A DNA stretch of 64,000 nucleotides from assembly GCA_963766715.1 (NCBI GenBank), contig CAVYBH010000015.1, positions 192,001 to 256,000 on the forward strand. The letters run 5' to 3'. Source of the DNA: an uncultured delta proteobacterium (GTDB lineage: Bacteria; Myxococcota; Myxococcia; Myxococcales; Anaeromyxobacteraceae). Position 1 is the stretch's first letter; each line of letters starts with the position of its first letter. The notes beneath the pieces are model-generated. The model ran no database searches. It was not told the origin of the DNA and worked only from the letters and a program-made list of their open reading frames with translations. The translations under genes were made by a program, and so were the position numbers. Below, piece by piece: positions 26,273 to 51,543 of the stretch.

Positions 26273-27212
26273 CTAGGCGGCGGCCCGGCGGGCGTCCCGG
26301 AAGTGGGCCACGGAGCGGGCGAGGCCGTCGGCCACCGCCACCCGCGGCTCCCAGCCCAGGACCTCCCGGGCCCGGGCCGGGTCGATGCACGAGCGCTTCT
26401 GCTCGCCCGCCCGTCCGGGCGCGTAGCGGGGCCTCGCGCCGACCCCGGCGGCCGACGCCATGTGGGCGAAGACCTGGTTCACGTCGGTCTCCACGGCCGT
26501 GCCCACGTTCACGGCGCCCGCGAGCTCCCGCTTCGCCGCGAGCAGGTTGGCCCGCGCCACATCCTCCACGAAGACGTAGTCGCGGGTCTGGGTCCCGTCG
26601 CCGTAGATGGTGCAGGGCTCCCCTTCGAGCATGCGCGAGGCGAAGATGGCCACCACGCCGGCCTCGCCGTGCGGGTTCTGCCGCGGGCCGTAGACGTTGG
26701 CGTACCGGAGCACCGCCGGCCGGATGCCGTAGAGGGATGCGTACACCCCCAGGTACAGCTCGGACGAGCACTTGGCCGCGCCGTAATGGGAGATCGGGTG
26801 GGCCGGATGGGTCTCCGGCGTGGGAATGACCTCGGTGTCGCCGTACATGGCGCCGCCCGAGGAGGCGAAGAGCACCTGGCGCACCGAGCCGGCCTTCCGG
26901 GCGGCCTCCATGACGTTGATCAGCCCCCGACGTTCACGTCGCAGTCGAAGAGCGGGTCGGCCACCGACCGGCGCACGTCGATCTGCGCCGCCTGGTGGCA
27001 GATCACGTCGGGCCTCTCGGCCAGGATGGCCGCCGCGGCGGCCGGTCCCGCACGTCGCACTCGTGGAGGCGCACGCGCGGGTCCAGGTTCACGCGACGTC
27101 CGGACGAGAGGTCGTCGACGACCGCCACGTTCCAGCCGTCGGCCAGGAAGGCGTCCGCGACGTGGGAGCCGATGAAGCCCGCACCGCCGGTGATGAGGAT
27201 CTTCGGGGTCAT
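26273..27212 (-). CDS. NAD-dependent epimerase/dehydratase (UDP-glucose 4-epimerase-like; several frameshifts)
   Basis: ITGGAGFIGSH, FASSGGAMYG, YGAAK, RYANVYGPRQ, GEAGVV. Confidence 0.88.
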
Positions 27213-27214
27213 GG

Positions 27215-29052
27215 TCACTCCACCGTCACGCTCTTGGCGAGGTTGCGGGGCTGGTCCACGTCGGTGCCGCGCAGGTCGGCCACGTGGTAGGCGAGGAGCT
27301 GCAGCGGCAGGATGGTGAGCAGCGGCGCGAGCAGCGGCGGGCAGGCCGGCACGCAGAGCGCCACCGACGGCCAGGCTGGCGGCCACGTTGTCGCCCTCCG
27401 AGACCACCGCGATGACCTCGCCCGCCGCGGGCCTGGACCTCCTCCATGTTGCCGAGCGTCTTCTCGTAGTGCGGCTCCTTCGCGGCGAGCACCACCACCG
27501 GCAGGTTCTCGTCGATGAGCGCGATGGGGCCGTGCTTCATCTCGCCGGCGGCGTAGCCCTCGGCGTGGATGTAGGAGATCTCCTTCAGCTTGAGCGCGCC
27601 CTCGAGCGCCACCGGGTGCTGCGAGTCGCGGCCCAGGAAGAGGAAGTCGCGGGCCTTGGCGCAGCGCTTGGCCACCGGCATCACCGCCGGCTCCTGCCGG
27701 AGCACCTGCTCCATCTGGGCCGGGATCTGGCGCAGCGCCTCGAGGTGCGGACGGGCCTGGTCGGCGCGAGAGCGTCGCCGCGCAGGCGGCCGAGCTTCAC
27801 GCGAGCAGGAACAGCGCGGCCAGCTGGGTGGTGAAGGCCTTGGTCGAGGCGACGCCGATCTCCGGGCCGGCGTGGGTGTAGAGCGTGCCGTCGCACTCGC
27901 GGGTGATGGCCGAGCCGACCACGTTGCAGATGGCGACGGCGCGGGCGCCGCGGCGCTTCGGCCTCCTTGACGGCGGCCAGGGTGTCGGCGGTCTCGCCCG
28001 ACTGGGAGATGGCGAGACCAGCGTCTTCCCGTCGACGAGCGGGTCGCGGTAGCGGAACTCGCTCGCCAGATCGACCTCGACCGGGATGCGGGCGAGGGTC
28101 TCGATCATGTTGCCGGCCGCAGAGGCCGGCGTGCTAGCTCGTGCCGCAGGCCACGATGGTCACCTTGGTGAGCCCCTTCACGTACTCCTCGGCGAGCTCG
28201 ACGCCGTCGAGCATGACGTCGCCCTGCTCGAGCAGATGCGGCCGCGGATGGTGTCGGCGACGACCCGGGGCTGCTCGAAGATCTCCTTGTGCATGAAGTG
28301 CTTGTGGCCGTCCTTCTCGGCGGCCACCGGGGTCCACTCCACGTGGTGCGGGGCGCGCGGTCACGGTCTCGCCCCGGGCGTTCTCGATGCGGATGCCCGT
28401 CCGGGCCGAGGTGCGGCGAGCTCGCCCTCCTCCAGGTAGATGACCTCGCGCGTGTGCTCGAGGATGGCCGGCACGTCGGAGGCGAGGAAGGCCTCGCCGT
28501 TGCCGTAGCCGAGGACGAGCGGGCTCGCGTTCTTGGCGGCCACGATCTCGTCGGGCCGCTTCTCGCGAGACCACCGCCATGGCGTAGGTGCCCTTCACCT
28601 GCTGCGAGCGCGTCGCGCACCGCCTGGGAGAGGTCGTTGCCGCCCTTGCCATCGCCTCGGCGATCAGGTGCGCGAAGATCTCGGTGTCGGTCTCGCTCGA
28701 GAACATGTGCCCCTTGCCGCAGCTCCGCCTTCAGCTCCAGGTGGTTCTCGATGATGCCGTTGTGGACCACGGCGACGCCCTGGTAGCTGTGCGGGTGGGC
28801 GTTCTCGTCGGAGGGGCGGCCGTGGGTCGCCCAGCGGGTGTGGCCGATGGCGGTGCGGCCGGTGAGCGGCTTCTCGGCCAGGCGGTCCACCAGGTTCTTC
28901 AGCTTGCCCTTGGCGCGCGAGACGGCGAGCCCGCCCGGGCCCGAGGACCGCCACGCCGGCGGAGTCGTAGCCGCGGTACTCGAGCTTCCGCAGCCCGCCG
29001 ACGACGACGTCGACGCAGGGGCGTGGCCGACGTAACCGACGATTCCGCACAT
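27215..29052 (-). CDS. glmS: Glutamine-fructose-6-phosphate aminotransferase (many frameshifts)
   Basis: [58 protein letters not shown]-terminal [10 protein letters not shown]. Confidence 0.93.
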
Positions 29053-29100
29053 GGGCGTGATTCCTTTGCGGGTGCGATGCGGAGAGACGGGAGGGCGTAC

Positions 29101-29116
29101 TTCAAGGAACGCGCCA
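29101..29116 (-). promoter_or_regulatory. Putative sigma54 promoter for glmS-epimerase
   Basis: TGGCGCG-TTCC-TTGAA versus consensus TGGCACG-N4-TTGCW (GA rather than GC at -12). Confidence 0.55.
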
Positions 29117-50956: not shown

Positions 50957-51097
50957 CCTTCGCGAGACCGGGTCCCCTGGACCCCTTCCCTTCCCGCACC
51001 CATGTGGGTGGAGCGGCGCGGCCTCCCCACGGCCGGGAAACCCCCGGGAAAGACCGGGGGCTCCGTGCGCCCGGTCCGCGATGTGGCGCCGGGCGGC

Positions 51098-51113
51098 TGG
51101 CCCAGGGGCTGCT
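51098..51113 (+). promoter_or_regulatory. Putative sigma54 promoter for the stand-alone receiver
   Basis: TGGCCCA-GGGG-CTGCT. Confidence 0.5.
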
Positions 51114-51138
51114 TCAAGGGAGTGCGGGAGGAGTTCCC

Positions 51139-51543
51139 GTGAGAGGTGAGGTCGAACCGGCCGAGAGCTGGCCCGCCGTCTTCGTCGTCGACGACGACGC
51201 CTTCCTGCGCGCCCTCGTCGGCGACTGGGTCGAGGACGCCGGCTTCCGCGCCGTGCGGCTCCCCGGGGGAGAGGCCTGCCTCGCGGCGCTCGCCAAAGAG
51301 ACTCCCGTGGCGGTGGTGCTCGACCTGCACATGTGGGGCATGTGCGGCGCCACGACGCTCGACGCCATTCGCATCGCACTCCCCAACCTGCCCGTGATCG
51401 CCCTCACCGGGGAGAGCGACCCGGCCTTCGCCCTCGACCTGGTCGAGCGCGGGGCGAGCGAGTTCCTGGCGAAGCCCGTCCACCGGAACCAGCTCGTCCG
51501 CGCCCTGCTCGCGGCAGCCTCCCTGGAGTCCGCCGCCGTCTAG
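51139..51543 (+). CDS. Single-domain response regulator, paralog of the sigma54 activator receiver
   Basis: GGAGGAG RBS, GTG start, PAVFVVDDD...LDLHM...LT...KPV. Confidence 0.85.
   Translation: MRGEVEPAESWPAVFVVDDDAFLRALVGDWVEDAGFRAVRLPGGEACLAALAKETPVAVVLDLHMWGMCGATTLDAIRIALPNLPVIALTGESDPAFALDLVERGASEFLAKPVHRNQLVRALLAAASLESAAV

Follow-up and report, generated by a model that had tools for sequence, protein, structure and literature searches.

A syp-related polysaccharide cluster in an Anaeromyxobacteraceae genome with an EpsY/EpsX-type exporter and a STAS protein predicted to dock on the priming transferase

Is the ~25-kb polysaccharide locus of this freshwater Anaeromyxobacteraceae metagenome-assembled genome, a myxobacterial relative, a Vibrio-type biofilm system in a foreign host or a lineage of its own? 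An earlier note on the 64,000-nt stretch analysed here (the window) took it for a syp-like system rebuilt in a probable myxobacterium; the family is known as syp in Aliivibrio fischeri, scv in Vibrio parahaemolyticus and rbd in V. vulnificus. A frameshift-aware parse, with domains assigned from Pfam and NCBIfam searches of 35 single-frame pieces, recovered every component listed by that note within positions 26273–51543 (Table 1), and an Rfam scan of the window gave 0 matches. We consider it fairly probable that the locus is a Wzx/Wzy cluster that combines a Myxococcota core sister to syp, an exchanged exporter of the EpsY/EpsX type and a STAS protein predicted to sit on the priming transferase.

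Table 1. Genes and predicted control sites of the cluster (positions in the window).
Feature	Position	Strand	Basis or remark
GalE-like nucleotide-sugar epimerase, frameshifted	26273..27212	-	intact in G003, G009; missing at this place in G010
Second glmS (glucosamine-6-phosphate synthase), many single-base indels	27215..29052	-	intact 610 aa in G009, G010
Sigma54-like promoter, variant -12 box, upstream of glmS	29102..29117	-	inferred; conserved in 3/3 aligned genomes
Short lipoprotein OPX, EpsY duplicate, frameshifted	29327..29939	+	tree; G003 copy 232 bits on NF041843
Outer-membrane beta-barrel, EpsX-like, frameshifted	29942..31380	+	NF041842 5e-16 on one piece
Stand-alone Hpt, leftover tail of PAS-HisKA-HATPase-REC-Hpt kinase	31454..31855	-	50–54% identity to relatives' kinase tails
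Stand-alone Hpt protein, frameshifted, 3' end approximate	31940..32188	-	105 aa, Pfam Hpt in G003
Single-domain response regulator 1, frameshifted	32185..32578	-	domain searches
Sigma54 -24/-12 site	32591..32606	-	inferred
Perfect palindrome GTTCC-N5-GGAAC, likely activator site (predicted)	32636..32650	.	conserved in 3/3 activator-keeping genomes
Sigma54 activator (REC-AAA-HTH), no SypG ortholog	32757..34276	+	domains, quick tree
WbpP/WbgU/TviC-type UDP-HexNAc 4-epimerase, 5' end approximate	34294..35293	-	solved relatives
UDP-N-acetylhexosamine 6-dehydrogenase, frameshifted	35342..36782	-	TIGR03026
Short STAS protein, Ala at SypA Ser56 position	36836..37141	-	Pfam STAS below cut-off
WecB UDP-GlcNAc 2-epimerase, frameshifted	37143..38300	-	TIGR00236
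Sigma54 -24/-12 site, upstream of wecB-STAS-dehydrogenase-epimerase	38314..38329	-	conserved in 5/5 genomes
Wzx flippase, not SypK-like, one frameshift	38362..39634	-	Pfam on G003 copy
GT4 glycosyltransferase, not SypH/I/J type, frameshifted	39631..40757	-	domain searches, comparison
SypM-like acetyltransferase	40761..41486	-	pairwise margin
SypL-like Wzy polymerase	41483..42823	-	Pfam Wzy_C; tree
SypO-like co-polymerase, frameshifted, start approximate	42820..44264	-	trees; 481 aa in relatives
SypD-like BY-kinase-fold protein without tyrosine tail	44268..44877	-	profile match, alignment
Sigma54 -24/-12 site, leftward operon	44894..44909	-	conserved in 5/5 genomes
Palindrome GTTC-N7-GAAC, likely activator site (predicted)	44918..44932	.	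conserved in 5/5 genomes
Sigma54 -24/-12 site, rightward operon	45048..45063	+	conserved in 5/5 genomes
SypP-like GT4 glycosyltransferase, frameshift near 3' end	45077..46188	+	motif; tree 59 with SypP
SypN-family glycosyltransferase	46185..47351	+	motif
SypQ-SypR fusion (membrane GT2 + small priming phosphoglycosyl transferase), frameshift near start	47348..49148	+	domains, tree, model
GH123 hydrolase, N-terminal signal-like peptide, Asp-Glu pair	49151..50956	+	Pfam GH123
Sigma54-like site upstream of response regulator 2	51098..51112	+	predicted; aligned in 3/3 genomes
Single-domain response regulator 2, duplicate of activator receiver	51139..51543	+	58% identity

The GT2 and the priming transferase, previously listed as separate proteins, are both present but form one fused gene, intact at 597–599 aa in all four relatives. 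Its SypR domain groups with SypR at 97/94 (a G001 enzyme included), and its SypQ part aligns over the full length and matches the motif, with a tree support of 55. A fold search with the model of the fusion returned membrane mannosyltransferase and synthase-type GT2 folds, which do not fix the sugar. Complex prediction for the G003 orthologs placed the STAS protein on this enzyme with a score of 0.72, compared to ≤0.02 for three controls. In calibration, 116 of 157 solved complexes attained the mark set, as did 2 of 215 mismatched pairs; since the complex was folded for the G003 pair with small custom-built alignments, this calibration applies roughly. Contact agreement among runs was at least 98%, with a partner pLDDT of at least 69. 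The predicted interface comprises residues 526–532 and 558–576 of the fusion, and the docking helix has 5 extra residues in 71 SypR-type rows relative to ExoE, WbaP-like and XrtA enzymes; of these 71 rows, 47 have a STAS gene within the sequence retrieved, vs 0 of 11 other rows (all counts including near-duplicates and kin). On the STAS side, the contact face spans the positions equivalent to SypA S56, Y64, K67 and R68, residues shown or proposed to matter (PMC4517449, PMC10120452). The STAS protein is thus predicted, at the level of a structural model, to dock on the SypR priming domain via a SypR-specific helix.

We rejected a SypA STAS protein with a phosphorylatable Ser56 as the component present here: the alignment register places Ala at this position, and the link to SypA-like proteins runs only through the G409-type group (profile probability 1.5% directly, 95% via G409-type proteins). 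Of the Syp-type inventory claimed earlier, the STAS protein, the activator and the flippase are present, while their orthology to SypA, SypG and SypK was not borne out. Could the STAS protein instead be a decayed relic or act elsewhere in an otherwise Syp-sister system, with the docking an artefact of the model? Its N-terminus is shortened, it falls below the Pfam cut-off, the DSSG motif is missing, K67 is not conserved, and its gene lies ~10 kb from the fusion gene in a different operon. Against this stand an identity of 75–79% across four genomes, the low scores of the controls and the restriction of the helix to SypR-type enzymes, as well as gene neighbourhood: the STAS and priming genes are no more than ~1.5 kb apart in G409, G464, G466, G467, G498 and G001, and STAS directly follows the priming gene in most proteobacterial loci extending that far. 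We judge a relic or artefact unlikely, albeit with an appreciable chance. Building on the predicted docking, a bolder proposal appears to us evenly balanced between right and wrong: SypA-type STAS proteins would dock on a helix found in SypR only, S56 phosphorylation would break this contact, SypR would be the target of SypA, and the switch would extend from Proteobacteria to Myxococcota, where a Ser-to-Ala change locked it on and one genus swapped its whole outer-membrane exporter.

The condition of this copy has to be weighed as well. The window contains 52 frameshifting indels absent from two relatives (51 of them single-base), and 46 frameshift calls fall in the 25 kb of the locus, above the 95th percentile of bins and in the genome's top few percent. 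Because of this heavy frameshifting, we leave a small chance to genuine decay in this genome, with real frameshifts and loss of the kinase, the SypI-like transferase and two secreted proteins; three genes present in the relatives indeed lack any match in the genome, which is 84.6% complete. However, the rate is high assembly-wide (15 of the 18 contigs examined show 0.41–2.18 apparent frameshifts per kb, vs 0.07–0.17 in four relatives), the other glmS copy, on contig C8, is likewise split, stop codons are confined to two matches running across frameshifts, the promoter boxes are intact, and at six predicted sites short-read contigs carry the opposite indel. We regard errors in the assembly as the probable source of the frameshifts. 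A homopolymer argument for sequencing error was dropped because the indels are not enriched there (11 of 52 vs 23%). The missing SypF-like kinase, by comparison, is a local deletion, whose junction at the Hpt tail is spanned by contigs of two other runs. The reported absence of SypF accordingly holds for this genome and not for its relatives, because one of its two Hpt genes is the tail of a hybrid kinase (compared in G003, G009 and G010) that is whole in all three relatives whose contigs span the region.

Sigma54 control, as proposed earlier, agrees with three -24/-12 sites, predicted from sequence, that are conserved in five of five genomes. Two more conserved GGAAC boxes follow the GTTC-N7-GAAC palindrome, before position 45020. 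SypG was rejected as the activator, which falls outside the SypG clade in a quick tree and groups with the activator of G409 (99), and the SypG enhancer core TTCTCANNNTGMDWN (PMC10162802) is absent from the window. The G409 locus is of the same type but comes from distantly related Myxococcota, so the signalling is not native to the lineage, contrary to the earlier reading. The second of two single-domain response regulators in the region resembles the receiver domain of the activator; an EpsW-like role for it was set aside given that this cluster has a small-type priming enzyme.

How the core, comprising SypL, M, N, O, P, the fused Q-R and a SypD-like protein, relates to syp was assessed against the Aliivibrio salmonicida/logei sypK-R (L149) and A. 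wodanis sypE-R (L155) loci, named by exact cluster look-up, alongside a SypO from V. nigripulchritudo and a locus from Plesiomonas. For SypA, B, C, D, I and J, the references were proteins of Plesiomonas and of metagenomes, identified by their place in the gene order. The exo labels on the G166, G020 and G027 loci are presumed from gene order. The gene order of L149 and L155 agrees with the published syp order (PMC6420764). All six motifs named in the earlier note (SypN, P, O, L, Q and R) were found here; searches with somewhat looser patterns recover them from both Aliivibrio syp loci and from 28–79 of 80 metagenome loci as well, and from none of the EPS, BPS, spore-coat, LPS and XrtA outgroup loci of the pool, where an XrtA SypN-family protein comes close to the SypN motif (FSDDWGRHPFSCQH). 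In pairwise comparison, SypL, M, O, Q and I match this cluster best by a clear margin; the G003 SypM-like acetyltransferase, for instance, is 37% identical to Aliivibrio SypM (164 bits vs ≤80 for outgroups), and it is this margin, not its quick tree, that assigns it to SypM. The polymerase is sister to SypL (83/91) and the co-polymerase to SypO (84/78; 89 in a 144-sequence tree), and a SypI-like transferase of the same locus family groups at 99. The SypD-like protein, likely a pseudokinase judging by its sequence, has a profile probability of 97% to a SypD-like set and 15% to a thin ExoD profile. SypB has no match in the cluster.

In a concatenated tree, the cluster belongs to a Myxococcota branch beside the proteobacterial syp/scv/rbd loci (81/83). 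AU tests rejected a grouping of the core genes with the spore-coat ExoC, ExoJ, ExoE and ExoP types (p = 1.9e-6), and a grouping with the EPS pathway gave p = 0.063, no formal rejection. The trees were all built under LG+G4, with no mixture model, and have long branches, and the multi-gene trees included a single XrtA locus. The claimed Syp-related core thus stands on margins, motifs, trees and the rejected spore-coat grouping, and is less firm on the EPS comparison and the weak SypN and SypQ trees. SypN and SypP match by motif, with tree supports of 49 and 59; for SypN, replicates are divided between Syp (485/1000) and an XrtA-type copy (428/1000), and SypN scores slightly higher in pairwise comparison to ExoP-type and XrtA proteins than to this cluster. 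Together with the best NCBIfam matches of the pieces, which are XrtA-system models, these features would suit a generic XrtA/PEP-CTERM-like or independent capsule lineage, with Syp likeness due to shared ancestry of the wider family. We consider this improbable: the XrtA matches all lie below cut-off (TIGR03007/03013/03027/03088/03097; 171 of 279 bits for the intact G003 co-polymerase), the cluster has no exosortase gene, and in addition to the six motifs and the SypI-like and SypD-like proteins the locus family has a SypC-like OPX and Q-R adjacency. A recent transplant from a Vibrio-like donor is very improbable despite the patchy occurrence in one genus (5 of 92 family genomes), as the proteins fall outside the proteobacterial clade in a co-polymerase tree with support of 100 for each clade, are 24–47% identical to those of Aliivibrio, have closer relatives in other Myxococcota and show host-like GC. 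The core therefore was not rebuilt from Vibrio; it is likely, from its sequences, an old Myxococcota sister branch of the Vibrio syp locus, with moderate tree support for this relation. The cluster is complete in 4 of 13 same-genus genomes and 0 of 78 genomes from other genera of the family, with gene order kept in G002, G003, G009 and G010. Scanning genome contigs for syp loci returned five Myxococcota loci only, and no locus was found in a scan of viral sequences. A lateral gain from a donor of Myxococcota type is likely.

The exporter agrees with the myxobacterial type named earlier, as supported by a tree and a structure model. The OPX (203 aa in relatives) is nested in the EpsY clade (100/99) beside the genome's own copy on contig C10 (86/58), and the NF041843 score of the G003 copy compares with a cut-off of 320 bits. 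The adjoining barrel is 40–47% identical to its C10 paralog and was modelled with 18 strands (G003 copy, pLDDT 67), and a fold search returned many porins and no specific best match. An OPX gene of ~200 aa next to that of an 18-stranded barrel is the arrangement of a composite short-OPX/beta-barrel translocon. A long SypC OPX was thereby rejected as the exporter here. In nine of nine related loci from the taxonomic class of G409, a different one from that of this genome, a SypC-like OPX lies directly upstream of the kinase-fold and co-polymerase genes, and the OPX proteins of G409 and these loci group with SypC (100/98); the small lipoprotein beside this OPX did not match SypB (profile 14%). 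The sequences suggest that a duplicate of the host EpsY/EpsX channel likely took the place of an ancestral SypC-like exporter. No cluster piece reached the NCBIfam cut-offs for EpsZ, EpsV, EpsW, EpsX or EpsY, all five of which G166 proteins pass.

The cluster also has its own amino-sugar supply and a hydrolase, as noted earlier (glmS, wecB, dehydrogenase, epimerases and GH123). The best solved relatives include WbpP 1sb8 and WbgU 3ru7 for the 4-epimerase (E ~1e-103 to 1e-107) and are ManNAcA/Cap5O-type enzymes for the dehydrogenase (G003 copy); for GH123, the best is 8k2f, an oligosaccharide-releasing beta-N-acetylgalactosaminidase (1.5e-25). SypK was rejected as the flippase (no BLAST match, profile probability 39%).

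In our working model, phosphoryl groups would flow via the Hpt proteins to the activator, from an own PAS kinase in the relatives and from outside kinases here, with response regulator 2, the duplicated receiver, as a possible sink. The activator would bind the GTTC-N7-GAAC boxes and open the sigma54 promoters. GlmS, WecB, the dehydrogenase and two epimerases may provide N-acetyl-hexosamines and their uronic acids. The SypR domain would prime undecaprenyl phosphate, likely switched on by unphosphorylated STAS on its specific helix; Ala in place of the phospho-serine would lock this switch in the on state, consistent with the lack of SypE. Together with three more transferases, the fused SypQ domain would build the repeat, SypM would acetylate it, Wzx would flip it, and SypL would polymerise it under SypO and the SypD-like pseudokinase. 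The chain would exit via the EpsY/EpsX-type channel, and GH123 may trim or clear GalNAc-containing chains. The product is likely, judging by gene content, an acetylated amino-sugar biofilm or capsule polymer.

If the predicted docking is true, it would identify the long-sought target of Vibrio SypA, stated as unknown in published papers: SypR becomes a named candidate with a residue-level predicted interface, and the SypA-SypR dock is simple to test in the standard laboratory symbiont. A published survey found scv loci only in 26 gamma- and 2 alphaproteobacterial genera (PMC8941931); the present locus would carry the family beyond Proteobacteria and add a Wzx/Wzy pathway type for myxobacteria. 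It further suggests that a co-polymerase lineage can exchange a long SypC-like OPX for a short one with a barrel, a change relevant to the modularity of export.

Compared to known systems, the cluster shares with spore-coat (exo/MASC) and XrtA/PEP-CTERM loci a SypN-family transferase of the ExoP type (29–38% identity), whereas those loci lack the Syp motifs and the SypR helix extension. With M. xanthus EPS it has the short OPX and 18-stranded barrel of EpsY/EpsX in common (PMC9601211), but the exporter alone: the OPX of the cluster does not reach the EpsY cut-off, the core genes do not cluster with the Eps genes, and a separate EpsY/EpsX/priming-enzyme locus is located on C10 of this genome. 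The kinase-fold partner without a tyrosine tail recalls the M. xanthus pseudokinase EcpK (PMC12004946). As in M. xanthus EpsW-EpsZ (PMC12802240), a small regulator would bind the priming enzyme and control the first synthesis step; EpsW is a receiver domain on a large enzyme, unlike the STAS protein and small GT2-fused enzyme here. Anabaena All4160, a natural STAS-priming-transferase fusion inhibited by serine phosphorylation (10.64898/2026.04.08.717354, which names a homolog XssP), likewise couples STAS to a priming-type transferase and is active when unphosphorylated; it is a fusion under a kinase and a phosphatase, in contrast to the separate genes, no kinase and natural Ser-to-Ala change here. 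Closest are syp, scv and rbd, which share SypL, M, O, Q, R and D-like genes and, probably, SypN and SypP types, along with common motifs, a partly kept P-N/Q-R order, sigma54 control, a STAS gene, a Hpt-ending hybrid kinase (in relatives of this genome) and the Q-R fusion, already reported from some Gammaproteobacteria. The cluster differs from them as a separate clade that lacks SypB, C, E, H and J, uses another flippase, activator and enhancer, has Ala at the phospho-site of STAS, and brings its own amino-sugar genes and GH123 enzyme.

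We read the locus as a probable sister branch of syp in Myxococcota whose exporter has very probably been replaced. All polysaccharide components listed in the earlier note were recovered by a codon-model parse and family scans (35 single-frame pieces), in a region of host-like GC content (0.71-0.75) within a 4.2-Mb Anaeromyxobacteraceae MAG (84.6% complete). With the intact copy of a same-genus relative (G003) representing the sister type (the window cluster and its relatives), pairwise comparison of the Syp references with it and with the outgroups gave SypL, M, O, Q and I their best matches in the sister type: the Aliivibrio SypL, SypM and SypO references scored 148, 164 and 142 bits against the sister type vs at most 83, 80 and 77 bits against the outgroups, and Aliivibrio SypQ and Plesiomonas SypI likewise had their top score there. 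SypN was the exception, ExoP-type and XrtA proteins scoring slightly above the sister type (199 vs 177). The Syp-type motifs proposed earlier also held: six, slightly relaxed, are shared by the sister type, the related locus of a Myxococcota genome of another class (G409) and the two Aliivibrio loci, and no outgroup locus has any of them; the Plesiomonas locus has no strict-pattern matches for the Q and R motifs.

In single-gene trees (LG+G4; built without G002, G010, G048, G053 and the majority of the metagenome loci), the sister type and the proteobacterial set each formed one clade (92-100 each), joined with supports of 84/78 (O), 83/91 (L), 55/59 (Q) and 49/28 (N), and of 97/94 in the R tree, where one enzyme of G001, a same-genus genome with a different locus, fell inside. 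A concatenated tree (six genes, 13 taxa, 2122 columns) united Syp and the sister type at 81/83. Using this six-gene concatenation, grouping with the long-branched EPS pathway obtained p = 0.063, i.e. was not rejected, and grouping of the core genes with the spore-coat pathway was rejected (p = 1.9e-6). A co-polymerase tree from a library-wide search (144 sequences) contained a sister clade of 49 members (95) and, next to it, a SypO clade of 62 members (100); the node uniting the two had a support of 89. We consider it probable that the cluster core is a Myxococcota sister branch of syp. Outgroups were loci of G166, G020, G027, G001 and G003 and the annotated XrtA locus of a D. vulgaris plasmid; EpsZ, Y, X, W and V of G166 all exceeded NCBIfam cut-offs, and the spore-coat, BPS and LPS labels are our assumption from gene order.

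The syp references comprised Aliivibrio, Plesiomonas and metagenome loci, with no A. fischeri DNA among them. By exact look-up the two Aliivibrio loci are A. salmonicida/logei (L149) and A. wodanis (L155), whose accession order agrees with the sypN-sypR table in the accessible part of PMC6420764; one protein cluster has a member annotated as SypO (V. nigripulchritudo). A metagenome scan yielded 80 syp-like loci, many ordered K-L-M-N-O-P-Q-R-A-B-C-D-E; SypQ-SypR fusions, already described in PMC8941931 (excerpts), occur in five of them (L086, L092, L096, L097, L111). The 396-kb P. shigelloides plasmid record NZ_CP027853 holds a complete syp-like locus, including SypA-E-like genes, close to pgaABC. 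The portions of PMC8941931 examined report scv loci in 26 gamma- and 2 alphaproteobacterial genera, Plesiomonas not being among those named there, and its supplement text (13,234 characters; large tables possibly missing) gave 0 matches for Myxococc, Anaeromyxobacter, Deltaproteobacteria or Plesiomonas. A literature search found no report of a syp-type locus in Myxococcota.

The cluster occurs with intact genes in the same order in 4 of 13 same-genus genomes. A polymerase query (E up to 1e-60) matched 5 of 92 family genomes, all of the same genus, and 0 of 78 genomes from the family's other ten genera. Co-polymerase profile matches were found in 71 of 401 phylum-sample genomes, with E < 1e-60 in only six (the window genome, its four relatives and G095). 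The loci of G003, G009 and G409 also contain a secreted DUF11/DUF4842 protein (~1066 aa) and a second extra protein (446-463 aa) matching no known family, both absent from the window genome.

Features of the window and of related loci
Feature	Location	Strand	Remark
Left flank	20939-26196		Ordinary metabolic genes, judging by translations; presumably nucleoside-type ABC transporter and phosphoribosyltransferase
Polysaccharide cluster	26273-51543		
Opposite indel in short-read contigs	28233, 28566, 28605, 28648, 29022, 29653		
GTTC-N7-GAAC palindromes	32636; 44918		Kept in 3/3; 5/5 genomes
STAS gene	36836-37141	-	
Sigma54-like box	37197-37212	-	Within wecB near its 3' end, immediately before STAS gene; conserved in 4/4 aligned genomes
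Near-perfect palindrome	37331-37345		3' part of wecB
Sigma54 boxes	38314-38329, 44894-44909, 45048-45063		Conserved in 5/5 genomes
GT4	39631		
SypQ-SypR fusion	47348-49148	+	
Right flank	51540-63781		Ordinary metabolic genes, judging by translations; presumably acyl-CoA carboxylase subunits and branched-chain-type ABC transporter
Other polysaccharide loci of the window genome, among others	C10:47117-50756; C1:240000-294200; C4:300-8400		C10: own EpsY/EpsX/priming-enzyme set
DUF11/DUF4842 protein and second extra protein, relatives	L020:12561-17113 (G003); L015:3-2807 and L077:12209-13999 (G009); L073-L074 (G409)		
G010 cluster	L017:4572-9924		
Small lipoprotein	L073:10988-11344		
G001 locus	L030:1698-4653		
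Plesiomonas locus	L013:12632-34249		

The window contains 52 frameshifting indels found in neither G003 nor G009 (51 single-base; 32 insertions), which are likely caused by assembly error. Real frameshifts in a decaying cluster are compatible with their density, since the cluster is among the worst regions (46 calls, exceeding the 95th percentile of 25-kb bins, 43.75). Decay is opposed by the genome-wide spread of frameshifts, with apparent rates of 0.41-2.18 per kb on the contigs examined (15 of 18) vs 0.07-0.17 in four relatives (same method) and the other glmS copy, outside the cluster, split as well; by stop codons confined to two matches crossing frameshifts; and by opposite indels at six sites in short-read contigs (six of the 12 rows listed out of 234). 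Apparent frameshift counts are high, too, in the C1 and C4 polysaccharide loci.

Turning to the product, the epimerase is closest to WbpP/WbgU, and ManNAcA-type enzymes are the nearest relatives of the dehydrogenase. The cluster also encodes WecB and a second GlmS. The GH123 hydrolase, closest to an oligosaccharide-releasing beta-N-acetylgalactosaminidase, keeps the Asp-Glu pair that we take to be catalytic. The predicted polymer is likely acetylated, containing GalNAc as well as N-acetylated uronic acids. The kinase-fold protein resembles SypD-like proteins (97%, profile match) and keeps the Walker A lysine without the middle region or the tyrosine tail; we infer a pseudokinase resembling EcpK as presented in the available part of PMC12004946.

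Several parts are not of Syp type. The activator groups with that of G409 (99; quick tree) and apart from SypG, and the SypG enhancer core (motif as in the consulted portion of PMC10162802) is absent. The flippase gave 0 BLAST matches to SypK, and the GT4 at 39631 is of neither the SypH nor the SypI or SypJ type. Four GTTC-N7-GAAC palindromes lie within the cluster (genome rate 0.032 per kb). The sigma54-like box inside wecB may be an internal promoter, or else reflect coding conservation. The reported lack of SypF stands for the window genome, where the Hpt tail alone remains (the junction is spanned by contigs of two other runs), and fails for G003, G009 and G010, which carry a SypI-like transferase and a PAS-HisKA-HATPase-REC-Hpt kinase with the C-terminal layout of A. 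wodanis SypF. The Hpt remnant could still work, since in V. fischeri a sypF deletion is complemented by the Hpt domain of SypF on its own (PMC12369376, in excerpt). The G010 cluster has lost its activator, receiver and Hpt genes, kept the kinase and promoter boxes, and gained a methyltransferase.

As previously suggested, the exporter is of myxobacterial type: the OPX (outer-membrane polysaccharide exporter; 203 aa in relatives) is nested in the EpsY clade (100/99), beside the genome's own C10 copy, and the adjoining protein is modelled as an 18-stranded barrel, an arrangement described in the accessible sections of PMC9601211. The class of G409 has the sister-type co-polymerase in 12 of 113 genomes; in all nine loci compared, from eight of the 12 (G457, G465 and G499 left out), the kinase-fold and co-polymerase genes are immediately preceded by a gene for a longer OPX, and these longer OPX proteins group with SypC (100/98). 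G498, G503, G504 and G505 share much of the window cluster's divergent layout, three of them also having GH123. On the simplest reading, the cluster would have been gained laterally from a Myxococcota-type donor, whereupon the SypC-like gene would have been lost and an epsY-epsX duplicate recruited at the flank, an unrooted order of events that we infer. Replacement of a SypC-like OPX by an EpsY/EpsX duplicate is very probable. A lipoprotein of 100-120 aa and no known family accompanies the SypC-like OPX (L073 and 8/9 loci of that class); tried as SypB, it does not match.

STAS genes adjoin the priming gene in many syp-type loci, and we therefore modelled the complex of STAS domain and fusion protein, both from G003. 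It scored 0.72 vs 0.02 for the best control. Among solved complexes 116 of 157 reach the score mark, and among mismatched pairs 2 of 215, counts that hold roughly since own alignments were used. Contacts agreed by at least 98% between runs (partner pLDDT at least 69), and the model supports binding of the STAS protein to the fusion. In the model the STAS protein touches the priming domain and not the GT2 domain, at fusion residues 526-532 and 558-576, where the helix carrying the SypR motif lies. On the STAS side residues 44-65 are involved; in ungapped register they take in SypA 54-68, with S56, Y64, K67 and R68 among them. Compared with 7 ExoE, WbaP-like and XrtA rows, the docking helix has five extra residues in 71/71 SypR-type rows (4 EpsZ-type rows differ there in other ways), and a STAS gene lies within the fetched stretch for 47/71 SypR-type vs 0/11 other rows; these counts are not a statistical test, as many of the 24 STAS-less stretches end early and rows include duplicates and kin.

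The window STAS protein has Ala at the position of SypA Ser56, and all aligned G409-type STAS proteins likewise lack that serine. In V. fischeri, SypA S56A is active and S56D inactive, and K67A and R68A are stable yet dead (PMC4517449, in part); the sections of PMC10120452 consulted have SypA working via an as yet unknown protein, perhaps through its SypE face, and point to Tyr64. A literature search, with subscription papers mostly outside its reach, found no report of SypA binding SypR. A different polysaccharide locus in G001 has its own GH123 gene and a SypR-type priming enzyme; the neighbours of this enzyme are a SpoIIE phosphatase, an RsbW-like kinase and a STAS protein whose DSSG motif is intact, which makes the locus a natural phospho-switch version suited to testing the docking model. 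We slightly favour a STAS-priming-enzyme switch in this locus family and give even chances to its holding for Vibrio SypA; the stated open question on the SypA target thereby becomes directly testable. Independent support for such coupling comes from Anabaena All4160, in which, according to the available part of 10.64898/2026.04.08.717354, a STAS domain is fused to a sugar transferase of the same family and serine phosphorylation inhibits.
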